Below, in pieces: positions 2,963-55,358 of a DNA stretch of 64,000 nucleotides. The first letter of the stretch is position 1; every line of letters starts with the position of its first letter. Source of the DNA: Pyrinomonadaceae bacterium (GTDB lineage: Bacteria > Acidobacteriota > Blastocatellia > Pyrinomonadales > Pyrinomonadaceae). The notes under the pieces were generated by a model. It searched no databases and was not told the origin of the DNA. It saw only the letters and a list, made by a program, of their open reading frames with translations. Where the stretch lies: contig DASVQA010000076.1 in NCBI GenBank assembly GCA_036389375.1, positions 2,669 to 66,668 of the forward strand, read 5' to 3'. Both the position numbers and the translations under genes were made by a program.

Positions 2963-3039
2963 TTTTGGTTTGTCGGCGTGGGCAATCTCGCGGGCGGCCA
3001 ACAACTTGAGCGACCACAGGAAGGAGCAGTTACGAGAGC

Positions 3040-4569
3040 ATGAGCGAGCAGGAGAAGAAGGTCCGGGCGCAGGGCGAGCAGCCAATTCTAACGAACCGTC
3101 AGGGTCATCCCGTCTACGACAACCAGAACAACCGCACCATCGGCGAACGCGGGCCGACCGTGCTGGAAAACTACCAGTTTCTTGAAAAGATCACCCATTT
3201 CGACCGTGAGCGGACGCCGGAACGCGTCGTCCACGCGCGCGGCGCTGGCGCGCACGGATATTTCGAGGCTTACGGCCGGATCGGCAGCGACCCGGCGAAA
3301 AAGTATACGCGCGCTAAACTCTTTCAGGAGAAGGGCAAGCGCACGCCCGTCTTCGTCCGCTTCTCGACCGTGATTCACGGCGGGCACTCGCCGGAAAACC
3401 TGCGCGACCCGCGCGGCTTCGCCATCAAGTTCTACACCGAAGACGGCAACTGGGACTTGGTCGGCAACAATCTGCAAATCTTCTTTATCCGCGACGCGGT
3501 CAAATTCCCTGACCTCGTCCACGCCTTCAAACCCGACCCCGTGACAAACCGTCAGGACGCGCGCCGCATCTTCGATTTCATCAGCCTGACGCCCGAAGCC
3601 ATGCACATGATCACGTGGCTCTTTAGCCCATGGGGCATCCCCGCCAGCTACCGCGAGATGCGCGGTTCCGGCGTCAACACCTACAAGATGGTGAACGCGG
3701 GCGGCGAGGCGGTGCTCGTCAAATATCACTTCCGCCCGAAGCAGGCGGAGCGCAACCTGACGCAGACGGAGGCGGACGAGATCCGTAACTTCAACCACGC
3801 GACGCAGGACTTGTACGAAGCCATCGAACGGGGCGACTATCCTGAGTGGGAGATGTTCGTGCAGATCATGTCGGACGACGAACACACGGAGTTGGATTTC
3901 GACCCGCTCGACGCGACGAAGCTTTGGCCCGAAGAACAGTTTCCGCTCCTGCGCGTCGGCCGCCTCGTGCTCGACAAGAACCCCGCGAACTACTTCGCAG
4001 AGGTCGAGCAGGTCGCCTTCGGCACGGGCGTGCTCGTGGACGGGCTAGATTTCTCCGACGACAAACTGCTGCAGGGGCGCACCTTCTCCTACTCCGACAC
4101 GCAACGCCATCGCGTCGGCACAAACTACCTGCAACTGCCCATTAACCGGCCCAAAGTACATGTCGCCACCAACCAGCGCGACGGGCAGATGGCCTTCTAC
4201 GTGGACAGCATAGAAGCGGGCGAGAACCCGCACGTCAACTACGAGCCGTCGAGCAAAGGGGGCTTGCGTGAAGCGCCGAAGACGGGGCTGGACTATACGC
4301 CTTACGTCTCCGGCCACGTCGTGCGGCAGGCGATCAGCCGGACGAACAACTACAAGCAGGCGGGCGAGCGTTACCGCTCGTTCCAGCCGTGGGAGCGCGA
4401 CGAACTGATCAGCAATCTGGTCGGCGCGCTCGCACAGTGCGACCGCGACATACAGGAACGCATGGTCGGACATCTGTTACAGTGCGACTCGGATTACGGT
4501 CTACGTGTGGCGGACGGGCTGGGCGTCAGGGCCAACGAACTGACAGCCCGCACGGCCGGCGGACGCTAA
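3040..4569 (+). CDS. katA: Monofunctional heme catalase (small-subunit type)
   Basis: 509 aa with ...[23 protein letters not shown]...RFSTV...[21 protein letters not shown]...FFIRD... hallmark catalase motifs. Confidence 0.95.
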
Positions 4570-10030: not shown

Positions 10031-11677
10031 TTACGGCAGGAGTCGCCAGTTGTGCGTCGGCTCAGGCGGGATGCGTTTGTGCTGCTCGACCCAGTCGATG
10101 ATCAACTCGCGTATCTCCTCGCTTGAGCGGAACAGTTCGGGCGCGCCCCGGTACATCGTGTAACCGCCGCCGCCGTTGACGCGATAGTTGTTCGTGGCGA
10201 GTTTGAGCTTCTGTGTTGCGCTCAAGGGCTGACCGCGCCAGCGCAAGTTCTGGATGCGTTGCCCGATGGGTTTGGTGATGTCCAGATCGTAAGTGACGCC
10301 TTCGGCAATGTCGAAGTTGTAGCCGGGAATCTTTTCGTCCACGAGCGCGGCGGCGGACTGGCCCGGCGCGTAGGTTTTGAAATATCGCGCCGAGTGCTCC
10401 AACGCATCCTTCAATTGCTGCCCCGTCACTTCGATGACGACCAGCGTGTTCTCGTACTCGTAGAGCGCCGCGATGTCGCGCACCGTGACGGGGCCGCGCG
10501 CGACGTGCGCCGCCGGATTGAAACTCGCCGCCATCGAAACGTCCGCGCGGCCGGCGTCCAGTTGCACGCGGTGGATGAGATCGAGCAGGGCGTTATCGCC
10601 GAGGCGCGCATCCTGCGCGGAGAGTTCAACGGCCGATTCGCCGATCACATGGTTGAGCCATGCTTGCGTCTCGCGGTCGTAAGGTTCTGCGAGTTTCATG
10701 GTGGCTGCATCCGGCGCGGACGCTTCGACGCTCAGCGTGCGCGCCTGTTTGGCGACGACCTGCCAGCGCCCGGCCTGCGCGCTCCTGGCAAAATAAACGT
10801 CCACGCGCGCCACATGCGACGCCCACCTATTCGCCTGCGTCAGCAGCACACCATTGATCAGCAAGTCGGGGACTTCGCGGTGCGTGTGCCCCATCAGGAT
10901 CACGTCCACGCCTTTGACCTGTTCGGCGATGGCGATGGCTTCGTTCTCGTGGGCCACCTGACCGGGCGTCACCTCGCCCGTGCGCAGGTCAGCGGCTAAC
11001 CCCATGTGCATCGCAATGACGACGAGATCGACGCGCTCCTTGTTGCGCAGCACGCCGACCCACTTCTGCGCTTCGGCGACTGGCGCGCGAAATTCCAGCC
11101 CCGCGTAGTTCTCCTTGTTCTCCCAACTCGGAATGCCCGGCGTCGTCAGCCCAAGTATGCCGACGCGCACGCCGCCCACTTCTTTCACGAGATATGGCTG
11201 ATAGTAAGTCTCCTGCGTGCCGGTGCGGTAGGTGTTGGCGGAGAGCCACGGAAACTGCGCTTCGCGGCGTGCTTTGGCGAGCACGGCGAGACCGAAGTTG
11301 TATTCGTGATTGCCGACCGCGAGCGCGTCGTAGCCGAGCGCGTTCATGGCGAGCATCATCGGATCGGGCGGCGCGTTGTTCAGCTTGTTGTGAAAGTATT
11401 CGAGCGGCGTGCCCTGAATCGTGTCGCCTGAATCAAGGAGCAGCGCCGCCGGGTTCTCCTTGCGAATTTGCTTGATGATGGTCGCGGCTTTCGCCAAGCC
11501 GCGCGCGTCCGGTTTGTTCGTGTAGTAGTCGAGCGGGTAGATGTTGCCGTGCAGGTCGGTCGTCGAGATGATGGTCACCCACGCGCGCTGCGGCGCAAGG
11601 TTGGCGCTTGAGGGCCAGCACAGCACGAAGACCGCCAACAAGCCAGCCAGCCAGATACTCGTTCGATTAACTTTCAT
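10031..11677 (-). CDS. Secreted bifunctional metallophosphatase/5'-nucleotidase (UshA/CpdB-like)
   Basis: Signal peptide; TTDLHGN, DSGDTIQGTP, GNHEYNFG, MGHTH metallophosphoesterase motifs plus a C-terminal nucleotidase domain. Confidence 0.85.
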   Translation of the reverse strand: MKVNRTSIWLAGLLAVFVLCWPSSANLAPQRAWVTIISTTDLHGNIYPLDYYTNKPDARGLAKAATIIKQIRKENPAALLLDSGDTIQGTPLEYFHNKLNNAPPDPMMLAMNALGYDALAVGNHEYNFGLAVLAKARREAQFPWLSANTYRTGTQETYYQPYLVKEVGGVRVGILGLTTPGIPSWENKENYAGLEFRAPVAEAQKWVGVLRNKERVDLVVIAMHMGLAADLRTGEVTPGQVAHENEAIAIAEQVKGVDVILMGHTHREVPDLLINGVLLTQANRWASHVARVDVYFARSAQAGRWQVVAKQARTLSVEASAPDAATMKLAEPYDRETQAWLNHVIGESAVELSAQDARLGDNALLDLIHRVQLDAGRADVSMAASFNPAAHVARGPVTVRDIAALYEYENTLVVIEVTGQQLKDALEHSARYFKTYAPGQSAAALVDEKIPGYNFDIAEGVTYDLDITKPIGQRIQNLRWRGQPLSATQKLKLATNNYRVNGGGGYTMYRGAPELFRSSEEIRELIIDWVEQHKRIPPEPTHNWRLLP

Positions 11678-16507: not shown

Positions 16508-16714
16508 ATGGAAGAACTGATCTTCGTGGTTGAAAATGCACTGGAGGGCGGTTATACCGCGCGGGCATTGGGCACGTCGATCTTCACCGAAGCCGACGAC
16601 TTGGCCGGACTGCGCGAGCAGGTGCGTGACGCCGTGCGCTGCCACTTCGATGAAGGACAGGGGCCGAAAATTATCCGGCTGCACTTTGTTCGGGAGGAAG
16701 TGATCGCAGCATGA
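16508..16714 (+). CDS. hicB: HicB-like antitoxin (short form, no DNA-binding domain)
   Basis: MEELIFVVENALEGGYTARALGTSIFTEADDLAGLREQVRDAV has the HicB/UPF0150-type N-terminal fold signature. Its stop overlaps the next ATG (ATGA). Confidence 0.65.
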   Translation: MEELIFVVENALEGGYTARALGTSIFTEADDLAGLREQVRDAVRCHFDEGQGPKIIRLHFVREEVIAA

Positions 16715-16953
16715 AGCTGCCCCGTGATGTGTCGGGCGACGCGCTGGCTAAGGCGCTTAAAGCCCTCGGCTATCAGATCACGAGGCAGACGGGCAGTCAC
16801 TTGCGTTTGACTACAATGGAGAATGGCGAGCACCACATCACCATTCCGCGACATGACTCGTTGCGCATTGGCACATTCGCCGCAGTCATTGATGATGTCG
16901 CAACGCACTTTGGTTTGACGCGGGATCAATTATTGGCGCGCATTAAATTGTAA
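16711..16953 (+). CDS. hicA: HicA-like toxin (YcfA family)
   Basis: [34 protein letters not shown]...[12 protein letters not shown] is a HicA-type dsRBD-like motif with the catalytic GSH. Confidence 0.7.
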
Positions 16954-16976: not shown

Positions 16977-19097
16977 ATGGCGACCGAGTTGCAGACGCGA
17001 GAGTATCAGGGCTTGAGCCGCGAGCAGTTGGTGGGTATCTACCGGACAATGTACCTGTCGCGGCGGATCGACGATAAGGAGATACAGCTTAAGGCGCAAT
17101 CGAAAATCTTCTTCCAGATTAGCGGCGCGGGGCACGAGGCGGTGCTGGTCGCCGCCGGGCTGGCCCTGCGACCCGGCTATGACTGGTTCTATCCGTATTA
17201 CCGCGACCGCGCGCTCTGTTTGCAGCTTGGCATGACGCCGCACGAACAGTTGCTCTCGGCCGTGGCGGCGGCCGCCGATCCGAACTCGCACGGTCGCCAG
17301 ATGCCCTCCCACTGGGGGCACAAAAAACTGAACATCGTCTCGCAGTCGTCGCCGACGGGCACGCAGTGCTTGCAGGCGGTTGGTTGCGCCGAGGCGGGCT
17401 ATCGCTTCCAGTTGATCGCGGAGCTAAAGGACAAGGTCGAGCAGTTTCACGCGGACGAGGTAGTTTACGTCTCGCTCGGCGACGGCACGACGAGCGAGGG
17501 CGAGTTCTGGGAGGCGCTCAACACGGCCTGTAATCTGAAGTTGCCGGTGCTGTTCCTCGTCGAAGACAACGGCTACGCGATCAGCGTGCCGGTCGAGGTG
17601 CAGACGGCGGGCGGCGACATCTCGCGTCTCGTCGCAGGCTTCCCCGACCTGCTGATTCAAAAATGTGACGGCACTGACCCGCTCGAATCCCTGACGACGC
17701 TGCAACGCGCGGTGGACTACTGTCGCGCCCGACGCGGGCCGGCGCTCGTCCATGCGAAAGTGATCCGCCCGTATTCGCACTCGCTCTCGGACGATGAAAA
17801 ACTCTATCGCCCGGACGAGGAGCGCACGTCCGACGCCGAGCGCGATCCCGTCAAACGCTTCGGCGCGCGGCTGGTGGATGAAGGGATCGTGACACAGGAG
17901 GAGTTGCAGCAGATCAAGGACGAGGTGGACGCGGAGGTGAGCGCGGCGGCCGATGCGGCGCTCGCCAGCCCGCAGCCCGACCCGCAGACCGCGCTCGATT
18001 TCATCTACTCGCCCGACGTTGACCCGACCGCGCAGGCGTTCGACACGGAAGCCGTTGGCGGCGCGGAAGGCAAAGAGGGCACGATGGCCGATCTGATCAA
18101 TCGCTGTCTGCACGAAGAGATGGCGCGTGAGCCGCGCATCGTCGTCTTTGGCGAGGACGTGGCCGACGTGTCGCGCGAGGAATATCTCGAACAGGTCAAA
18201 GGCAAGGGCGGCGTCTTCAAAGTGACGGCGAACCTGCAACGCAAGTACGGCAGCGCGCGCGTCTTCAACTCGCCGCTCGCGGAAGCGAACATCGTCGGGC
18301 GGGCCATCGGCATGGCGACCAGAGGGCTGAAGCCGGTCGTCGAGATACAGTTCTTCGACTACATCTGGCCCGCCTATCACCAGATCAGAAACGAACTGGC
18401 GTTGATGCGTTGGCGCTCAGGCAATGAATGGCAGTGCCCCATCGTGATCCGCTGCCCCGTAGGCGGTTATCTGAAGGGCGGCGCGGTCTATCACTCGCAG
18501 TCGGGCGACACACTGTTCACGCACATACCGGGCTTGCGCGTCGTCTATCCGGCGACCGCGCGCGACGCCAACGGTCTGTTGCGCACGGCGATTCGCTGCG
18601 CCGACCCCGTCCTTTTCCTCGAACACAAGCACCTCTACCGGCAGGCTTACAACAAGTCGGCCTATCCGCCGGACGGCTTCCTGATCCCCTTCGGCAAAGC
18701 CAAGACCGTGCGCGCCGGCACAGACCTCTCCATCATCACCTACGGCGCGCTCGTCCAACGCTCGCTGACCGCCGCCAAACAGGCCGCCGAGCAGCAGGGC
18801 ATCAACGTGGAAGTCATAGACCTGCGCACGCTCGCGCCCTACGACTGGCCGGCCATCGTGCAGAGCGTCAAGCAGACCAACAAGGTCATCATCGCGCACG
18901 AAGACACGCGCACACACGGCTTCGGCGCGGAGATCGCCGCCCGCATCGCGGATGAACTCTTCGAGTACCTCGACGCCCCCGTCCGCCGCGTCGCCGCCCT
19001 CGACACCTTCGTCGCCTACGCCCCGCAGGTCGAAGACCACATCCTCCCGCAGATCGACGACGTGGCCCGCGCCATCACGGAACTTTACGCCTACTAA
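16977..19097 (+). CDS. Fused alpha/beta E1 component of a TPP-dependent 2-oxoacid (branched-chain type) dehydrogenase
   Basis: N-terminal alpha part ([14 protein letters not shown]...[15 protein letters not shown]), Pro-rich linker, beta part ([10 protein letters not shown]...GGVFKVT...[12 protein letters not shown]...EIQFFDY). Confidence 0.9.
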
Positions 19098-19117
19098 GGG
19101 GGCAGCTAGATCACAAA

Positions 19118-19150
19118 GGGGCGACCGGCCAATCCGGTCGCCCCTTTGTT
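19118..19150 (+). terminator. Rho-independent terminator of the E1 gene
   Basis: GGGGCGACCGG-ccaat-CCGGTCGCCCC followed by TTTGTT. Confidence 0.8.
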
Positions 19151-19164
19151 CATGCCGATAAGCC

Positions 19165-19314
19165 GCCTAAGCTCCCGCCATTAAGAGCCGTCTAATCTGC
19201 CGCCCTGTTTCGTAAGTCGTTGCAAATTCAGGACTGAAGTAATAGCTTAAGATATTAGACGGCTAATCGGGCGTATTTGTCGGTAGCAGTTAGGGCGTCT
19301 AATTTAAGTTAGGC
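19165..19314 (+). repeat. Left junction of the cassette region: nested inverted/direct repeats with attC/attI-like boxes
   Basis: GCCTAAG (19165-19171) and GTTAGGC (19308-19314) are a near-complementary outer pair. Perfect 11-bp inverted repeat AGCCGTCTAAT (19186-19196) / ATTAGACGGCT (19254-19264). Third copy GGCGTCTAAT at 19294-19303. GTTAGGG (19289) and GTTAGGC (19308) are direct repeats. Confidence 0.45.
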
Positions 19315-19341
19315 TTCTAAACTTGAGAGGGTTTAGAGGAA

Positions 19342-19557
19342 ATGACAAAACACCTGATTCGCCTGGTTACCGCCTTGCTGTTCTTGCGGGTGTCCGCTCA
19401 TGACTCGACCGCACAATCCGAGCAACGGCAATGCGTCGGTTTTCGCTTCCAGGGCAGAAGCGCAATCACGGCATGCACGCGACCGCCCGCAGCTTCGCTG
19501 GCATGGAGCTTGTACGGTAAATCGCAGCTTGTGTGGTCGGCTCGGCGCTCCGGTTAG
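19342..19557 (+). CDS. Possible small ORF (71 aa, hydrophobic N-terminus)
   Basis: ATG preceded by GAGAGGG/GAGGA; MTKHLIRLVTALLFLRVSAHD.... No family recognised and it may be non-coding. Confidence 0.25.
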   Translation: MTKHLIRLVTALLFLRVSAHDSTAQSEQRQCVGFRFQGRSAITACTRPPAASLAWSLYGKSQLVWSARRSG

Positions 19558-19581
19558 CGCCAGCGTTGGGCATCCGGAAAG

Positions 19582-20178
19582 ATGAACGGCAAACCAAAGT
19601 GCATCATCGTCACGGGCCGGCCGGGAGCGGGCAAAACCACGCTGGCGAAGAAGCTTGGGGCACGCCTGTGGTTGCCGGTCGTCAGTCGTGACGAGATCAA
19701 AGAGGGTTACGTAAACACGTGCGGGGTCAAACACGATCAGCTACCAGCCAATACGAATGCAGTAGCATCCAACTTCTTCTTCGATATCGTAAACCAATAC
19801 CTCGTCAACAAGGTTTCTATCATCATAGAGGCTGCCTTCCAGCACAAGGTTTGGGAGCCGAGAATAGCCAAAATTGCCGAAATTGCCAGCCCATTCATGA
19901 TTGTTTGCGCAATAGACGGCGATCTGGCGGCAAGCCGACATCTACAGCGAGGTCTGGATGAGCCGGGTAGAGAGTTCTATCACGGCGATAAGCGAGTTTC
20001 GGTTTACAAGGTCACAGGTGCCGTCGCTCCCGCAGGTGAGTATGAAGCCCCGGACTTCAATGTGCCTACAGTGCATGTATCTACGGATAATGGGTACTGC
20101 CCCGGCATAGACGAGATTATCGAAAAGATTCATCTACAACATGCCTGCCAAGCCGCCGAAGATGACGCTGCTCGTTGA
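19582..20178 (+). CDS. P-loop kinase-like ATPase (AAA_33/zeta-toxin-like fold)
   Basis: KCIIVTGRPGAGKTTLAKKLG...VVSRDEIK Walker A. Gene is bracketed by GTTGGGC (19565-19571) and GCCCAAC (20190-20196). Confidence 0.7.
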   Translation: MNGKPKCIIVTGRPGAGKTTLAKKLGARLWLPVVSRDEIKEGYVNTCGVKHDQLPANTNAVASNFFFDIVNQYLVNKVSIIIEAAFQHKVWEPRIAKIAEIASPFMIVCAIDGDLAASRHLQRGLDEPGREFYHGDKRVSVYKVTGAVAPAGEYEAPDFNVPTVHVSTDNGYCPGIDEIIEKIHLQHACQAAEDDAAR

Positions 20179-20189
20179 CGCGTACGCGC

Positions 20190-20237
20190 GCCCAACTCTC
20201 GCGTCCGGCGGCACTACTGACGGACGCTCCGTGCAGG
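20190..20237 (+). repeat. Short attC-like site (candidate)
   Basis: GCCCAAC-TCTCG-CGTCCGG-cggcactactga-CGGACG-CTCC-GTGCAGG. R'' is a perfect RYYYAAC, the L''/L' arms pair with one unpaired base, and R' is degenerate (GTG instead of GTT). Confidence 0.4.
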
Positions 20238-20304
20238 TACAGGCATCGAGCATTTGCCTGCTTTGTCAATGACCTTCTAACTTAGCATCCAGATGTGAAG
20301 AACC

Positions 20305-20682
20305 ATGTCGAAGAATGCCACGTTCGCTGCTGCCATCGTCGAAGCAATACGGAACGCGAAGATCGTCGGCGTTCGCGCCGGCCCTGAGCACCGCTACACG
20401 GGTGTCTGGGTCGTAGTCGTTGACGGCAGAGTTTTTGTGCGCTCCTGGAACGACAAGCCTACGGGCTGGTTCCGCGCCTTCAGGCAGCAACCATGTGGGA
20501 CGATTAAGGTCGGGGCGCTCGAAATCCCTGTCCGGGCCAAGTCAGTTCGCGGCGCGCGCATTCGTGATGCTGTCACGGTGGCGTTCGGCGAGAAGTACAA
20601 CACGAAGGCGTCGCTCAGGTGGGTAGAGGGATTTGCCGAACCAGCACGCGCACTCACGACGCTGGAGTTCGTTCCGGCCTGA
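20305..20682 (+). CDS. DUF2255-like small protein
   Basis: 125 aa with ...HRYTGVWVVVVDGRVFVRSWNDKPTGWFRAF..., recalled as the DUF2255 signature. Confidence 0.6.
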   Translation: MSKNATFAAAIVEAIRNAKIVGVRAGPEHRYTGVWVVVVDGRVFVRSWNDKPTGWFRAFRQQPCGTIKVGALEIPVRAKSVRGARIRDAVTVAFGEKYNTKASLRWVEGFAEPARALTTLEFVPA

Positions 20683-20741
20683 GCATCGGCAATCAGCGCC
20701 AACTCGTCGGGTTTATCGTTGTAGGGCTGGCGCGACGCGCT

Positions 20742-20852
20742 GCTGAACAACTCATTGAACCCGACCATCCTTAGCTTGCCTCTCATTAACCTTTGCTGAT
20801 ACATCTTAGGTCGCTACTGTTGTCGGGCGGCGGGTTAATTCGGGCGTGAGGC
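20742..20852 (+). repeat. attC-like site 1 (111 bp)
   Basis: R'' GCTGAAC (20742-48), AACTC, L'' ATTGAAC (20754-60), variable imperfect palindrome (CCGAC...GTCGG), L' GTTAAT (20834-39), TCGGGC, R' GTGAGGC (20846-52). L''/L' pair with one extrahelical base. Confidence 0.7.
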
Positions 20853-20875
20853 GCAAAGTCGAATGGAGAATAGAA

Positions 20876-21403
20876 ATGAGGATAAGCAAACGTCTTTACC
20901 TTTTTCCGCTAGCCGTGACTTTGTTGATGGTCTTTCCAAGCCAACCGAATGTGTGCGCGCAAACATTGAGCAGCGAGCCACAGACCGCGACGCTGTTGAC
21001 GCGCAAGATAACTGATGGCGTTGACAATTACACGCAAGCGGCATTCAGCTTTAAGTATGGTGTTAATGGCGATGCGGCGTTGAAAGTTACAAGGAATAAT
21101 TGGGATTTATTGTTCGGTAATAGTTCCTTGCCTGATGCCTTCGATGTCACAATGGTAACGAACGATTGCAGCCGCATAAAAGATTTGGGCGCATTGAATT
21201 GGCCAGATGTTTACTACGTTCCTGTGCTTCCGGCGCACCTTGAACCGACGCGCGAACCCAGCGTAAAGGCCATCATCGGTCATATGTATGTTGTGCATAC
21301 CAAAGATACAGACAATGATCATTATGCGTTGTTCCGCGTGGAGGCCCTCGAACCGGGCAAGAGCGTTACGATCTCATGGAAGTTGGTTATCTCGCCAGAA
21401 TAA
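20876..21403 (+). CDS. Secreted hypothetical protein
   Basis: ATG 20876 after GGAGAA; signal peptide MRISKRLYLFPLAVTLLMVFPSQPNVCAQ. The track start GTG 20846 is actually the attC R' box. AT-rich codon usage. Confidence 0.65.
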   Translation: MRISKRLYLFPLAVTLLMVFPSQPNVCAQTLSSEPQTATLLTRKITDGVDNYTQAAFSFKYGVNGDAALKVTRNNWDLLFGNSSLPDAFDVTMVTNDCSRIKDLGALNWPDVYYVPVLPAHLEPTREPSVKAIIGHMYVVHTKDTDNDHYALFRVEALEPGKSVTISWKLVISPE

Positions 21404-21431
21404 AGAGTGGCGCGTGCTCACGTCCGATTGC

Positions 21432-21533
21432 GCCTAACAACTCATTCAACCGGAGCGCAAGTTAGCATGTCCTTCATCGTTAACTTGGCTGTCGCGGCGT
21501 TGTATGCGTGCCCGGTTAATTCGGGCTATTAGC
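21432..21533 (+). repeat. attC-like site 2 (102 bp), homologous at both ends to site 1
   Basis: R'' GCCTAAC (21432-38, perfect RYYYAAC), AACTC, L'' ATTCAAC (21444-50), inner hairpin CAAGTTA...TAACTTG, L' GTTAAT (21515-20), TCGGGC, degenerate R' TATTAGC (21527-33). Confidence 0.7.
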
Positions 21534-21557
21534 TTGCTTATTGAGAGATAAGGCTTG

Positions 21558-21944
21558 ATGAATAAACAGTTCGTATTTGTTTATGGCACGTTGCGGCCGG
21601 GCGGCACGCGCGCTCTGCCTGATATCTTGCCTGCGGCAAAGTTTATTGGTCGGGCAAACGTGCGCGGCCGCCTCTATGATCTGGGTGCATATCCGGGCTT
21701 GCTGGTTGATGCCGCCGGCTCGTTAGTGCTGGGCGAAGTCTATGAGATTGATGATGACATTCTGCATAAGTTGGATGAGATAGAAGCCGCAAGTTTTTAT
21801 TGGCGGAAGCCGGTTGAAGTCGCGCTTGCTAACCACAGCCTGACCTGTTGGGTTTATGAACCGGATGCCGAGTTTTATCCCCTTCAAGTATTAATTACTT
21901 CAGGTGATTGGATTGAATATGCTAAGACGAAAACCGCACAATAA
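21558..21944 (+). CDS. Gamma-glutamylcyclotransferase (AIG2/GGACT-like)
   Basis: FVFVYGTLRPGG...GRANVRGRLYDLGAYPGLL...VLGEVYEIDDDILHKLDEIE. Confidence 0.8.
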   Translation: MNKQFVFVYGTLRPGGTRALPDILPAAKFIGRANVRGRLYDLGAYPGLLVDAAGSLVLGEVYEIDDDILHKLDEIEAASFYWRKPVEVALANHSLTCWVYEPDAEFYPLQVLITSGDWIEYAKTKTAQ

Positions 21945-22412
21945 ATGGGGTTGCTCATGCATATTAAAATAGATGATCTAAGCGGGGCGGAGATATATGA
22001 ACTGTTGCAGGAACATCTTCAGAGTATGCGTCAACACTCGCCGCCTGAGAGTGTGCATGCGCTGGATATTGAGGCGCTGCGCCAACCTGATATTACGTTT
22101 TGGACAGTCTGGGAAAACGGCGAACTGCTTGGCTGTGGCGCACTCAAAGAACTCGATGCACAGCATGCCGAAATCAAATCTATGCGGACGGCTACGCGGC
22201 ATCTGCGCAAGGGCGTGGCGCGCACGCTGCTTGCTCACATACTGGCAGAAGCCAGACGACGTGGCTACGACCGTTTAAGTTTAGAGACGGGTTCAATGGC
22301 CGCGTTCGAGCCGGCCCGCCAGCTATACGCCCGGTTTGGCTTTATCTATTGCGCGCCGTTTGCGGATTATGTCGAAGACCCTAATAGCGTCTTTATGACC
22401 AGAGAGCTTTGA
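21945..22412 (+). CDS. GNAT-family N-acetyltransferase
   Basis: ...WENGELLGCGALKEL...AEIKSMRTATRHLRKGVARTLLAHILAEARRRGYDRLSLETG...ARQLYARFGF. Abuts the GGCT stop (TAA-ATG). Confidence 0.85.
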   Translation: MGLLMHIKIDDLSGAEIYELLQEHLQSMRQHSPPESVHALDIEALRQPDITFWTVWENGELLGCGALKELDAQHAEIKSMRTATRHLRKGVARTLLAHILAEARRRGYDRLSLETGSMAAFEPARQLYARFGFIYCAPFADYVEDPNSVFMTREL

Positions 22413-22428
22413 GTTTTGGCGTTTGCCT

Positions 22429-22953
22429 ATGCTTGGCTTGCGGCGCGGCACGGTGAGGCTCGTGCCTTACACGACGGAGTGGGCGCGGCTGTTTGCCTCG
22501 GAGCGGCGGCTGCTGGTCGCTGCGCTCGGCGGGCTGGCGTTAGCGGTGGAGCACGTCGGTTCGACGGCCGTGCCGGGACTGTGCGCGAAGCCGATTCTGG
22601 ACATCGGCGTAGCGGTGCGTGACGAGGCAGATGCGGCGGCGTGCGTTGTGCCGCTCGCGGGGCTTGGTTATGAGTATCTCGGCGCGCGACGCGGTGCGGG
22701 CGGGCACTTCTTCGCCAAAGGCGCTGACGAAAGACGCACGCATTACATCCACGTAGTCGCGCAGGCTGAACCGGACTGGGCCGCCTATCTACGTTTCCGC
22801 GACCGCCTGCGCGCCGACGCGACCGCCAGAGACGAATACGCACGCCTCAAGCAAGACCTCGCCGCCGCGCACGCCGCCGACCGCGCGCGCTACACGCGCC
22901 AGAAAGCCGCCTTCATCCAGCGCATCCTCGCGGACACGACAGCCCACGAATGA
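22429..22953 (+). CDS. GrpB-family protein
   Basis: VRLVPYTTEW...VEHVGSTAVPGLCAKPILDIGVAV...YEYLG...H.H.V. GC is much higher than in the preceding four genes. Confidence 0.8.
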   Translation: MLGLRRGTVRLVPYTTEWARLFASERRLLVAALGGLALAVEHVGSTAVPGLCAKPILDIGVAVRDEADAAACVVPLAGLGYEYLGARRGAGGHFFAKGADERRTHYIHVVAQAEPDWAAYLRFRDRLRADATARDEYARLKQDLAAAHAADRARYTRQKAAFIQRILADTTAHE

Positions 22954-23286
22954 GTTTCAAGACCGAGCGCCGCAGCCACTCCGGCCGGCGGTAGCCGCCC
23001 GTTCTCGCTCGCCCACGGCCAGCCGGCCGCAAGGCCTCTTTCTAACAACAAAACTGCCGTAATCTGCCCGGCTCACGCGCGCGGGCTGAGCGGTCAGTTG
23101 CCATACACAGATGTATTGTATCGTTTCGCGTCGCCGGCCTGGCCGGCCGCCTTAAAGCCAGTCTTTAAGCCACTTACGCCTGCGCGCCTGCGGCATGGTG
23201 GTTGCCCCATCAAGCCGTGTGTCACGAGCTAGTTTCCCATTACTCTCCCAAGCGTAAAACTGTTTCTGAGGAGGAGAATTACCGCT

Positions 23287-24252
23287 ATGAGTAAACGTTT
23301 GCTGAGCTTTGCGGCCAGCGCAACATTGATCCTGACGCTTGCTGGCCTCGCCGTCGCGCAGGACACCAAAACGACAACTACCACCACCACCCAAACTACC
23401 AAGACGATTCAAAATGCCGACGGCACTTACACCATCATCCAGTACCCGGCCGATAAGGAAGTCACGGTCAATCTGACGCCGGGGACGACCATGAGCAGCG
23501 CGAAGGGCATGGCGCGCGTCATGCGGCACGGCGACGCGACGACCATCAACCTCGACCTGTCGGGCCTGCCCGCCGACGCTTCGACCGTCAACCTCTACGC
23601 CGTCGATCCGACCGGCGCGTTCACGCTGCTGGGGCCCGTGAATCTGGCCAACGGCACGGCGACGCAGTCGTTCACGACGCCGCTCGACAAGTTCATGCTC
23701 GTGCTCTCGCCGAACGGCAGTTTGAGTTCGATGGCGGCTAACGACATCATGTTCCGCAGCGCAGTGCCTGAAGGCTTCGCGGTTGTGCCTTACGCGCAGA
23801 GCGGCCCGCAGGGCGGCGCAGCCGTCGGCGAACGCGTCGCGGCGACGGCGGCTCCGGCCGCGGCTTCGCCCTACAGCGTGCCGATGCTCAATATCCCGAA
23901 CTTCCGGCGCGGCACGGACACGCACTTGCGCGTTAACTTCGCCGAACTGAACGACGCCCGCGCCAACGTCTTCCTTGAGCCGCGCAAAGACGGCCCGACG
24001 ACGATCAAGATGCGCTTCCACAGTCTGACGCGCGTGCCCTCCGACAAGCGGATCGTGCTCTGGGCCGTTTCGCCCGAAGGCACTTACACGCGCCTCGGCC
24101 AAGTGATCAATACGCGCAACCGCAACGAAGCGCAGATTCAGACCGAGACGGCGCTCAAGGACTTCGGTCTGCTCGTGACGCTCGAAGACAAGGACGAAGT
24201 GCCGAACCCGTCCGGCCCGACCTTCGCCACCGTCGTCATTGACAACAAATAG
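23287..24252 (+). CDS. Secreted hypothetical protein (Thr-rich linker, two similar beta-rich halves)
   Basis: Signal peptide MSKRLLSFAASATLILTLAGLAVAQ, then TKTTTTTTTQTTK. No family recognised. Confidence 0.7.
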   Translation: MSKRLLSFAASATLILTLAGLAVAQDTKTTTTTTTQTTKTIQNADGTYTIIQYPADKEVTVNLTPGTTMSSAKGMARVMRHGDATTINLDLSGLPADASTVNLYAVDPTGAFTLLGPVNLANGTATQSFTTPLDKFMLVLSPNGSLSSMAANDIMFRSAVPEGFAVVPYAQSGPQGGAAVGERVAATAAPAAASPYSVPMLNIPNFRRGTDTHLRVNFAELNDARANVFLEPRKDGPTTIKMRFHSLTRVPSDKRIVLWAVSPEGTYTRLGQVINTRNRNEAQIQTETALKDFGLLVTLEDKDEVPNPSGPTFATVVIDNK

Positions 24253-52354: not shown

Positions 52355-52885
52355 TTAAAATATCTGTGAGCCTTTGCGTAGCACCGACCAGGCGACATCG
52401 GTGAGGGTGTGGCTGGCCGCGCCCCACCACAGACCGGCCAGCGCGGCGAGCAGGACGTGCAACGTGCGTCCCTGCATCAGCGCGCCCGCTTCAATCGCGC
52501 GCCATGCGCGGAGCACCGCGCTGTAATCGGCCGGCGTGCCGGCGACGAGTGTGGCGCGCAGGTAGATGGCGGCGCACACGACGAGCGTCAGCATCAGCGC
52601 GAAATAGACGACGCGGATCAGCGTGCCGAAGATGATGCCGTGCGACCAGCGCGAGCGGTGGCGAAAGAGGGCGCGGTACGGCCACCAGAGGAAACGAAAC
52701 AGACCCCAACGCGTGTACTGCCGCGACAGTATGTCGAGGTCTGGGCCGAACATCAGTCCACCGAACAGCATCGCGCCCGTCGCCGTCGCCGCCAGCAACA
52801 CGCTCCCCGTCGCGCCCCACGCCGCCGCGAAGGTCGGCGCAGCCAGCAACAAAGTGATCGCGTCGTGTGTGCGTCCCGAAGGCAT
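52355..52885 (-). CDS. Putative membrane metal-binding protein (DUF2227/COG2389-like)
   Basis: MPSGRTHDAITL...FGPDLDILS...RWG.FRFLWWPYRALFRHRSRWSHGIIFGT. Confidence 0.55.
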   Translation of the reverse strand: MPSGRTHDAITLLLAAPTFAAAWGATGSVLLAATATGAMLFGGLMFGPDLDILSRQYTRWGLFRFLWWPYRALFRHRSRWSHGIIFGTLIRVVYFALMLTLVVCAAIYLRATLVAGTPADYSAVLRAWRAIEAGALMQGRTLHVLLAALAGLWWGAASHTLTDVAWSVLRKGSQIF

Positions 52886-52966
52886 AAGAGCAGAGGTCAG
52901 AGGTCAGAGGTCAGAGGTTAGCTAAGCAATTTTGCTGCTACTGACCTCTGACCTCTGACCTCTGCT
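52886..52966. repeat. Palindromic heptad-repeat element, copy 1
   Basis: GCAGAGGTCAGAGGTCAGAGGTCAG pairs perfectly (25 bp) with CTGACCTCTGACCTCTGACCTCTGC around a central AGCAATTTTGCT mini-hairpin. Arms are built of (GAGGTCA)x3. Confidence 0.9.
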
Positions 52967-55270: not shown

Positions 55271-55286
55271 AATGTTCGTCCTCCAT

Positions 55287-55358
55287 AGAGCAGAGGTCAG
55301 AGATTAGAGGTTAGTCAGAACGGTTTTTAACTGACCTCTAATCTCTGACCTCTGCTCT
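55287..55358. repeat. Palindromic heptad-repeat element, copy 2
   Basis: AGAGCAGAGGTCAGAGATTAGAGGT pairs (25 bp) with ACCTCTAATCTCTGACCTCTGCTCT. Shares the AGAGCAGAGGTCAGAG terminus with copy 1 and abuts the galU stop codon. Confidence 0.9.

Follow-up and report, generated by a model that had tools for sequence, protein, structure and literature searches.

In the 64-kb stretch of Pyrinomonadaceae DNA analysed here (the window), a variable insert with low GC3, specific to this window, occupies positions 19099-22422 on the plus strand. It lies between the gene of an E1 dehydrogenase (2-oxoacid dehydrogenase E1, 16977-19097) on one side and a GrpB-family ORF (22423-22953, +; Pfam GrpB 2.2e-48) and an RskA_C-like gene (23287-24252) on the other. 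GC3 amounts to 0.55-0.58 in most ORFs of the insert, compared with 0.80-0.85 in the flanking genes. Exceptions are a DUF2255 ORF with 0.72 and a GGACT ORF under the listing threshold of 0.55. The plus strand of the insert features, in this order, a relic attC designated site 0 (19460-19571), a cassette-like ORF of 198 aa for a P-loop kinase of the AAA_33/zeta-toxin-like type (19582-20178; Pfam AAA_33 2.4e-9, Zeta_toxin 3e-8; GC3 0.58), the DUF2255 cassette ORF of 125 aa (20305-20682; Pfam PF10012 1.3e-15), attC site 1 (20742-20852), a cassette ORF of 175 aa (20876-21403) and attC site 2 (21432-21534). These are followed by two further ORFs of low GC3, a GGACT/AIG2-like gamma-glutamylcyclotransferase (21558-21944; Pfam PF06094 3e-24) and, abutting it, a GNAT acetyltransferase (21945-22412; Pfam PF00583 4.5e-18). 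Searches with PADLOC and NCBIfam revealed nothing specific for the cassette ORFs, and no sigma-70-like promoter was found within 19000-23300.

The bottom strand of an attC site generally forms a hairpin, whose R''/R' and L''/L' pairs make up two boxes for integrase binding with an unpaired spacer between them. The recombining strand is marked by two extrahelical bases, and strand exchange takes place at G|TT in R'. The first-pass annotation had described two elements of this architecture, and the reading of both repeats as integron attC sites is supported. The sequences occur as quoted there, and a home-made family covariance model (R1), which was derived from 90 relatives in other genomes, the sites of the window being excluded, recognized site 1 with 72.6 bits (E 1.2e-19) and site 2 with 74.0 bits (E 4.6e-20), the best other score in the whole window with filters off being 10.9 bits (E 0.8). 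Site 1 additionally reached 86.9 bits with a subfamily HMM. The conserved ends are unique to the two sites, with AACAACTCATTSAACC occurring exactly twice in the window (20746 and 21436) and likewise GGTTAATTCGGGC (20833 and 21514, without mismatches).

Site 1 consists of R'' GCTGAAC (20742-20748), which fits RYYYAAC at 6/7 positions, the spacer AACTC (20749-20753), L'' ATT-G-AAC from 20754, a loop motif AGCTTGCCTCTCAT (20773-20786), L' GTTAAT (20834-20839), the spacer TCGGGC (20840-20845) and R' GTGAGGC (20846-20852), in which GTT is changed to GTG. Site 2 features a perfect R'' GCCTAAC (21432-21438), the same spacer AACTC (21439-21443), L'' ATT-C-AAC from 21444, the loop motif AGCATGTCCTTCAT (21464-21477), L' GTTAAT (21515-21520), the spacer TCGGGC with an inserted T (21521-21527) and R' ATTAGCT (21528-21534), with A in place of the G of GTT. 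Thus, GTT is missing from the R' of both sites. The R' of site 2 had previously been read as TATTAGC, a register replaced here by the best alignment with its 1-nt insertion in the preceding spacer. The proposed pairing of L'' (ATTSAAC) with L' (GTTAAT) leaving one base unpaired holds for both sites, the base being G20757 in site 1 and C21447 in site 2, and a second bulged base follows six pairs past the first (A20764 and A21454, respectively). A further pairing suggested for the centre of site 1, CCGAC with GTCGG, was not retained, as covariation in the family gives AACCSG/CSGGTT with a bulged A and a GC stem of 5-6 bp. The spacers AACTC and TCGGGC lack mutual complementarity in both sites. 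The L stem is paired at 13/14 positions in site 1 and in site 2 (family mean 13.2), and the R box at 5/7 and 3/7, respectively (family mean 5.9). Site 1 begins 59 nt and site 2 28 nt past the upstream stop codon, the downstream ORF starts 24 nt past the site in both cases, and the two sites are 580 nt apart, with site 0 located 1.2 kb upstream. All checks proposed in the first-pass annotation favoured the attC reading. As to folding, intact relatives form the R box and a bulged stem on the bottom strand and leave the spacers unpaired, e.g., a close intact relative of site 1 (L120:7497-7607) with a z of -5.2 against shuffled sequences. Site 1 alone folds no better than shuffled ones (z +0.93), and site 2 reaches a z of -1.95.

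The likeness to class 1 59-base elements noted in the first-pass annotation was supported by comparison with a 60-nt sequence 100% identical to the attC following aadA1 in plasmid R100 (NC_002134). The family model aligns with this element end to end, including all 21 pairs and both bulges (48.3 bits, E 2e-13). Both feature the same order of parts: R'' RYYYAAC is followed by a 5-nt spacer and by L'' with a bulge after 3 nt, next come 6 bp, the second bulged A, the GC stem and L', and R' GTTRRRY lies beyond a spacer of 6 nt. They also share the primary sequence CTAACAAnTC..TTCAA..C.GA / ..TTAA.TC..GCGTTAG. Nevertheless, the R100 element comprises 60 nt in contrast to the 102-111 nt found here, where a loop of 45-60 nt carries a conserved motif. 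Unlike class 1 elements, the copies in the window have GTG or ATT for GTT and adjoin neither intI nor attI, and their host is an acidobacterium instead of a proteobacterium.

The two sites belong to a well-defined attC family of soil Pyrinomonadaceae, to which it is specific; the loci sampled contain more than 350 copies. A search for further members, as recommended at the outset, was successful: a scan of public genomes showed the family in at least 120 genome stretches, almost all of them from metagenome-assembled genomes of Pyrinomonadaceae/Acidobacteriota, forming one-stranded arrays in the sense that up to about 15 copies within 8 kb share their orientation. Among the listed loci, 359 model matches were obtained in 681 kb. 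All copies lie on one strand in 114 of the 120 loci, and 45 of them hold a single copy per 8 kb, so that the family is often dispersed and not confined to arrays. Adjacent sites are separated by a median of 571 bp, the longest ORF fills 82% of the gap (median) and runs on the attC strand in 97 of 113 intervals; the arrays thus represent co-oriented cassettes of one ORF each. This co-orientation speaks against a generic dispersed REP element without a link to ORF ends, the outcome that had been named as contradicting the attC reading. R'' is most often GCCTAAC and R' most often GTTAGGC, most copies fit RYYYAAC and GTTRRRY, and the crossover triplet GTT is kept in 239 of 254 relatives (94%), a few relatives having ATT or GTC in its place. 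The common layout begins with a 7-nt R'' and a 5-nt unpaired spacer, continues with the bulged L stem, the loop and L', and ends with R' past a 6-nt spacer. Pairing amounts to 90.9% of the cells in 90 relatives as compared with 22-44% after sliding the 3' partners, compensatory changes between GC and CG occur at five stem positions, and the bulged bases occupy identical columns throughout the alignment of these 90 as well as in the aadA1 attC of R100. Even in a distant copy (L125), the L box is fully compensated (CTT-G-CACCTG-A / CAGGTG-AAG) with both bulges present. In the loci L010, L093 and L068, arrays of the family adjoin divergent integron-integrase genes (TIGR02249, 456-491 bits at a cutoff of 265), and the integrase protein of L010 is 55% identical to IntI1 of R100. 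Judged from this position, these would be the cognate integrases, and the family sites are predicted to be recombined by an integron integrase in their folded single-stranded form.

Besides, the loop contains a motif, AGCnTGnCTTTCAT, conserved in all stem subfamilies at a fixed distance of 39-40 nt from the start of R''. Consensus structures of the loop were not found in any subfamily by RNAalifold, and the motif could be assigned with clarity to neither the paired nor the unpaired state. It represents the one unexplained item of the attC analysis. A function as a putative binding site of an extra protein or as a signal for expression of the downstream cassette is conceivable, though doubtful.

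Each attC is expected to mark the 3' end of a mobile gene cassette. Accordingly delimited, one complete cassette extends from 20847 to 21528 (+), i.e., from the base after the G of the site 1 R' to the equivalent base of site 2, and comprises the ORF 20876-21403 together with site 2. The ORF is preceded by GGAG 7 nt before its ATG. Its earlier description as a secreted protein stands as far as the translation, read by eye, features an N-terminus like a signal peptide, but matches to Pfam, NCBIfam or PADLOC were not obtained. Homologues with 40% identity are located in the cassette arrays of L011 and L066, the former at 2974-2402 between attCs at 2997-3096 and 2275-2380. A crossover inside R' predicts that the R' of one site is complementary to the R'' of the next. 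In the family arrays, R' matched the R'' side of the following site at 9.97 of 14 positions, as opposed to 7.65 for its own and 7.53 for random ones (Wilcoxon p 4e-16). The same pattern was seen in the window, where the R' of site 1 with its tail, GTGAGGCGCAAAGT, fits the R'' side of site 2, GTTAGGCGCAATCG, in reverse complement at 10/14 positions and its own R'' side at 6/14; taken alone, the comparison in the window is not significant. Two expected partner sequences were not found, namely the start of the cassette ending in site 1 and the R'' of the cassette beginning after site 2.

Site 0 was assigned to the subfamily of site 1 by an HMM built from 9 subfamily relatives and run over the whole window, which matched 19477-19544 (21.3 bits, E 1e-5); the family covariance model did not match it. 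It has the subfamily length of 112 nt and features an R''-like GCGCAAT, the core CGACCGCCC..AGCTT, an L'-like GGTTAG and R' GTTGGGC (19565-19571), ending 10 nt before the next start codon, with only 5/14 pairs of the L stem left. Further attCs were recognized neither between the kinase and the DUF2255 ORF nor after the GNAT and GrpB ORFs by the covariance model, the family HMM and four subfamily HMMs. As no attC was found between kinase and DUF2255 or after the GGACT-GNAT pair (covariance model and HMMs), cassette status is supported for only part of the ORFs in the insert. Two candidate parts, a GCCCAAC box just past the stop codon of the kinase ORF and TTCTAACAAC at about 23046, found no support, and a generic heuristic (AAC...GTT with a spanning stem) applied to 19000-23400 yielded hairpins of coding sequences only and nothing convincing.

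The region between the E1 and the RskA-like genes varies among relatives. In L124, L126 and L127, the RskA_C-like gene directly follows the E1 gene, while other small genes are inserted there in L128, L123 and L125. Among the latter, L125 carries an attC of the family in this same region, in contrast to L128 and L123 without any. The GrpB ORF shares 69% amino acid and 73% nucleotide identity with the GrpB gene of L128, which adjoins the RskA-like gene as well, and it is regarded as an older resident of the same variable region, shared with L128. In L089, a GrpB homologue sits between attCs. Comparison of the intergenic parts of the insert with the 120 loci, among them the three with intI, revealed no similarity. 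Likewise, insertion junctions could not be drawn from the island-less L124, whose intergenic DNA aligns no better than shuffled controls. An integrase was found in the window neither by tblastn with IntI1 nor among 20 mid-size ORFs searched against Pfam; the window extends at least 19 kb to either side of the cluster. An attI was not recognized in the window, and no transposase was seen flanking the cluster. Elsewhere in the genome, beyond the 64 kb examined of the 203-kb contig, an integrase may be present.

Altogether, the locus is very probably a cluster of cassettes without an integrase nearby, with two well-preserved attC sites and a decayed relic in a variable hotspot, and this cluster is probably immobilised. 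Most likely, the cassettes would have been brought in by an integrase working in trans or within a piece of an array. As both preserved sites lack GTT and the third has lost its stem, the cassettes are probably fixed by now and would represent decaying passengers rather than active mobile units. Nevertheless, sites 1 and 2 retain intact L stems and both of their bulged bases, and a few relatives also carry ATT or GTC, so that the sequences would allow for some residual activity, which may persist. With at least two attC sites close to each other and no integron integrase in the 64-kb window, the cluster is a CALIN; intI and attI beside the array, as in a complete integron, were not found in the window. 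CALINs and SALINs are clusters of attC sites and single attC sites, respectively, without an integron integrase (Cury et al., 2016, PMC4889954; Loot et al., preprint 10.1101/2022.09.11.507474), and small clusters are typical, 1362 of the 2961 CALINs surveyed holding just two cassettes. The present locus, with two or more attCs within a few kb and no integrase nearby, shows no essential difference from these, and it may have originated from an array fragment or from an attC x attG insertion. The family further resembles the attCs of sedentary chromosomal integrons, e.g., Vibrio VCRs and the Acidobacteria model of Ghaly et al. (2021, PMC8352920), in its lineage-conserved sequence, its hundreds of copies and its cassette arrays of mostly unknown function.

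The closest competing explanation regards the locus as a working satellite array, in which an integrase encoded elsewhere in the same genome continues to recombine sites 1 and 2 in trans and the region between the E1 and RskA-like genes is a recurrent landing site. The nearly complete L stems with both bulged bases, the variability of the region among close relatives with a family attC at this place in L125, and the many solitary copies or small clusters of the family are consistent with it, and insertion of cassettes outside att sites has been documented (preprint 10.1101/2022.09.11.507474). Against this stand the loss from both sites of the GTT that nearly all relatives keep, the poorly paired R box of site 2, the folding of site 1, the decay of the adjacent site 0 and the regions of L128 and L123 devoid of family attCs, and an array in working order is considered unlikely. 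The intergenic region may also be a preferred attG-like landing site reused by a distant integrase.

Alternatively, a complete integron could once have resided here and have lost its integrase and attI by subsequent deletion in place, with a remnant of the array staying behind. Integrase loss is the classical explanation for CALINs (Cury et al., 2016, PMC4889954), and several boxes of the CTAAT/GTTAGG type are present in 19186-19314 upstream of site 0, among them GTTAGGC at 19308, together with an 11-bp inverted repeat. Still, this stretch is dissimilar to the loci carrying intI and attI, tblastn revealed no integrase pseudogene, and relatives have the E1 gene beside the RskA-like gene or unrelated genes in between, never an integrase. 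The GTTAGGC at 19308 was rejected as the start of a first cassette or as an attI core, since GTTAGGC with its tail can pair with the R'' side of site 0 at only 8/14 positions, which is not above chance, 41% of random 14-mers reaching 10/14 in a scan of this kind. A deletion in place thus seems improbable. Far less credible still is a dispersed palindrome of the REP or MITE type, or a transcription terminator, unrelated to integrons. Such repeats share with the family that they are imperfect palindromes of about 100 nt in intergenic positions after ORFs, with many copies which are often solitary within their 8-kb contexts. In contrast, the family copies are strictly co-oriented with the upstream ORF, contain the RYYYAAC/GTTRRRY boxes and have their bulges in register with the R100 attC. 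Moreover, their arrays adjoin integron integrases, and the complementarity between R' and the R'' of the next site is specific to cassette exchange. T-runs of the terminator type were not found after the sites, and Rfam gave no match to them, attC itself being absent from this database.

The preferred reading as a probably immobilised cassette cluster illustrates that attC architecture is recognizable from raw sequence alone. The current understanding of integrons remains unchanged by it, since acidobacterial attCs and small CALINs have already been described (PMC8352920, PMC4889954), and the integrase-less cluster is an ordinary kind of element. In the library searched, no paper named Pyrinomonadaceae and dealt with their integrons, the two containing both words being concerned with beta-lactamases to judge from title and abstract. 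The locus adds to the record an instance of integron cassettes left behind outside an integron, here in an acidobacterium from soil, with accessory genes for kinase-like, DUF2255, secreted and acetyltransferase-type proteins. Of greater use than the finding itself are its by-products, i.e., the attC family of the Pyrinomonadaceae, its putative cognate integrases (L010, L093, L068) and the loop motif. These could help to assign gene cassettes from soil to their hosts and to study the decay of attC sites once no integrase maintains them.

Two plus-strand elements in the window, site 1 (20742-20852) and site 2 (21432-21534), were interpreted in the first-pass annotation as attC sites bracketing one open reading frame, and this interpretation is supported. 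Their sequences are identical to those quoted there, and the left motif AACAACTCATTSAACC as well as the right motif GGTTAATTCGGGC occur exactly twice in the 64-kb window, at these sites only. Site 1 starts 59 nt after the stop of a small DUF2255 ORF (20305-20682, plus strand) and site 2 starts 28 nt after the stop of an ORF (20876-21403, plus strand) for a 175-aa protein whose N-terminus resembles a signal peptide, with the next start codon lying 24 nt past the end of each site. A family covariance model (R1), built from acidobacterial elements only and with the window sites left out, was run on the whole window with filters off and gave 74.0 bits for site 2 and 72.6 bits for site 1, the best other match reaching 10.9 bits; relatives score 45-105 bits. 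Both sites retain 13 of 14 L-stem pairs, together with 5 of 7 (site 1) and 3 of 7 (site 2) R-box pairs, the family means being 13.2 of 14 and 5.9 of 7.

Further array members, as envisaged in the annotation, were sought in one pass over 185,579 species-representative genomes with the pattern AACTCATTSAACC-N(50-80)-GGTTAATTCGG, which yielded at least 120 stretches with a match. The hosts of the listed stretches are nearly all Pyrinomonadaceae or other Acidobacteriota MAGs, and some of the listed stretches contain as many as 10 exact matches in 8 kb. The 174 exact matches among those listed are all distinct in sequence, beginning with seven bases of RYYYAAC type (GCCTAAC in 50 cases) and ending with seven of GTTRRRY type (GTTAGGC in 43). 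By profile HMM, 383 copies were found in the 120 listed loci, all on the same strand in 114 of them. Between adjacent attC pairs (n=113) the gap has a median of 571 bp, its longest ORF lies on the attC strand in 97 pairs, and this longest ORF covers 82% of the gap (median). A generic dispersed repeat, the alternative raised in the annotation, does not agree with such co-oriented copies and ORF-filled, cassette-sized gaps; the family loci are cassette arrays and not a randomly dispersed repeat. Some exact family members belong to MAG contigs with the labels Bacteroidota, Chthoniobacterales, 'delta proteobacterium' and Anaerolineae (L006, L041, L042, L059), which reflects either cross-phylum cassette transfer or binning errors.

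The structural layout of attC sites was imposed on an alignment of 90 relatives: a 7-pair R box, two unpaired spacers (5 nt and 6 nt) and an L stem in which 3 pairs, one bulged base, 6 pairs, a bulged A and 5 pairs follow one another. Under this layout 90.9% of the cells are paired, dropping to 22-44% in the control with 3' partners slid by 1-3 columns, and five positions of the stem show GC<->CG exchanges, each in 21-30 of the 90 sequences. The same stem was found unaided by RNAalifold in the whole set and in four subfamilies on either strand. Moreover, a distant copy in L125, a relative sharing the E1 dehydrogenase gene of the window, has an L box that differs in sequence yet is fully compensated (CTT-G-CACCTG-A-CCGCCC / GGGCGG-CAGGTG-AAG), with both bulges kept. 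In the folding check proposed in the annotation, the bottom-strand DNA of intact relatives adopts the textbook attC fold, with an R box, both spacers unpaired and a bulged stem. Site 1 has a fold no more stable than that of shuffled sequence (z +0.93), whereas the fold of its close relative L120:7497-7607 has a z of -5.2.

The link to integrons is given by full-length IntI1 homologues in L010, L093 and L068, detected by tblastn with an IntI1 sequence as query. All three pass the NCBIfam model TIGR02249 'integron integrase' (456-491 bits, cutoff 265), and each of the genes is divergent from an adjoining family attC array; the L010 integrase shares 55% identity over 314 residues with the annotated IntI1 of plasmid R100. 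Across the family, the R' of one site, extended by the 7 nt downstream, shows complementarity to the R'' side of the following site at 9.97 of 14 positions, versus 7.65 for its own and 7.53 for a random R'' side (p 4e-16), as expected if crossover takes place within R' and every cassette brings an R'' of its own. The resemblance to the classical 59-base element, noted in the annotation, proved correct in detail, because R1 aligns end to end with the aadA1 attC of R100 (48.3 bits, E 2e-13), keeping the 21 pairs and the two bulges all in register. The 60-nt reference attC is 100% identical to the segment that immediately follows aadA1 in the class 1 integron of this plasmid (intI1-aadA1-attC-qacEdelta1-sul1).

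The 45-60 nt loop of the family varies freely except for the motif AGCnTGnCTTTCAT, which is conserved in 81-88 of 90 relatives per position (alignment columns 33-46), lies 39-40 nt from the R'' start in 219 of 256 elements and is retained by each of the four stem subfamilies as well as by both window sites (20773-20786 and 21464-21477). Its pairing state is ambiguous, and inspection of the sequences revealed no consistent peptide. In part, it resembles a repeat of the L'' region.

The R' box starts with GTT in 239 of 254 full-length relatives, with GTG in site 1 and, after a 1-nt spacer insertion, with ATT in site 2; in addition, site 1 features CCATCC where its subfamily has CCGCCC. Since the conserved triplet at the attC cleavage point matters for recombination activity, we infer that the sites would be weak or dead in recombination. 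A third, strongly decayed attC of the subfamily of site 1 (site 0, 19460-19571, plus strand, R' GTTGGGC) was matched by the subfamily HMM at 19477-19544 (21.3 bits, E 1e-5 for the whole window) and has 5 of 14 stem pairs left; the start codon of a kinase-like ORF follows 10 nt past its end. The attC sites of the cluster are partly degenerate. Because the R' and tail of site 1 match the reverse complement of the site 2 R'' side at 10 of 14 positions, versus 6 of 14 for its own R'' side, 20847-21528 takes the form of a complete cassette; the 10/14 agrees with the model, although it is not significant alone. Homologues of the 175-aa ORF (40% identity) reside inside cassette arrays of L011 and L066, the one in L011 being flanked by two family attCs.

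The cluster lies in an insert between the E1 dehydrogenase gene (16977-19097) and an RskA_C-like gene (23287-24252) on a metagenome contig of 203 kb, the E1 protein being identical to that of an NCBI Pyrinomonadaceae MAG. Most insert ORFs (19582-22412) have a GC3 of 0.55-0.58 versus 0.80-0.85 in the flanking genes, the exceptions being DUF2255 (0.72) and GGACT (below the 0.55 listing threshold). In L124, L126 and L127 (E1 identity 89%) the interval is empty, with the RskA_C-like gene 354 nt after the E1 gene. In L128 (92%), E1 is followed by Mannosyl_trans2, Imm7, RibD_C, DinB and GrpB genes, in L123 (91%) by another gene set and in L125 (90%) by other genes and a family attC (10254-10362). 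As GrpB and the DNA beyond are shared with L128 (69% aa, 73-74% nt), the window-specific part is 19099-22422. Among close relatives within the Pyrinomonadaceae, the interval (19099-23250) forms a variable hotspot, and attC-bearing cassettes are found in it in at least two lineages. Genomic GWT sites have been shown to receive cassette insertions (preprint 10.1101/2022.09.11.507474); either such an event or a translocated array fragment may account for the cluster here. Upstream of site 0, 19186-19314 holds a cluster of CTAAT/GTTAGG-type boxes, including an 11-bp inverted repeat (AGCCGTCTAAT at 19186-19196, ATTAGACGGCT at 19254-19264), GGCTAATCGGGCG at 19261-19273, which resembles the family L'-spacer, and the boxes GTTAGGG (19289) and GTTAGGC (19308). 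The cluster of boxes may represent remnants of an attC or attI, with no test being significant.

Directly after the E1 stop, a GC-rich hairpin followed by a T-run (19116-19149) resembles a terminator, and read-through expression of the downstream cassettes is therefore unlikely; a search of 19000-23300 detected no sigma-70-like promoter. Immediately before the E1 gene, two small overlapping plus-strand ORFs (16508-16953), the second of which has a HicA_toxin Pfam match according to the source-contig gene calls (L121 7532-7977), probably form a HicAB-type toxin-antitoxin pair, which is absent at this spot in L124 and L126. L124 (3251-3357), L126 and L127 (both 3245-3351) carry a solitary minus-strand family attC (68 bits) some 4 kb upstream of E1, with a methyltransferase gene on one side and a 171-aa ORF on the other, i.e., a SALIN without an integrase nearby in relatives that lack the island. 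Elsewhere in the window, short tandem CAGAGGT/TAGAGGT heptamer runs occur at 52877-52921 and 55284-55314, 2.4 kb apart.

Integron attC sites, clusters of them without an integron-integrase (CALINs) and lineage-specific attC families are well established (PMC8352920, PMC4889954), a covariance model for attCs of the phylum Acidobacteria is already published (PMC8352920), and in published surveys small CALINs outnumber the other classes (preprint 10.1101/2022.09.11.507474). The literature searched contains no paper on Pyrinomonadaceae integrons, the two in which both words occur appearing to concern beta-lactamases. No integron integrase was found in the 64-kb window by tblastn with IntI1 or by Pfam scan of 20 mid-size ORFs. 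The absence of an integrase from the cluster, the partial degeneration of its sites and its location in a variable hotspot are three facts added to those of the first-pass annotation. The window cluster adds a member to the already known attC/CALIN class rather than a new class.
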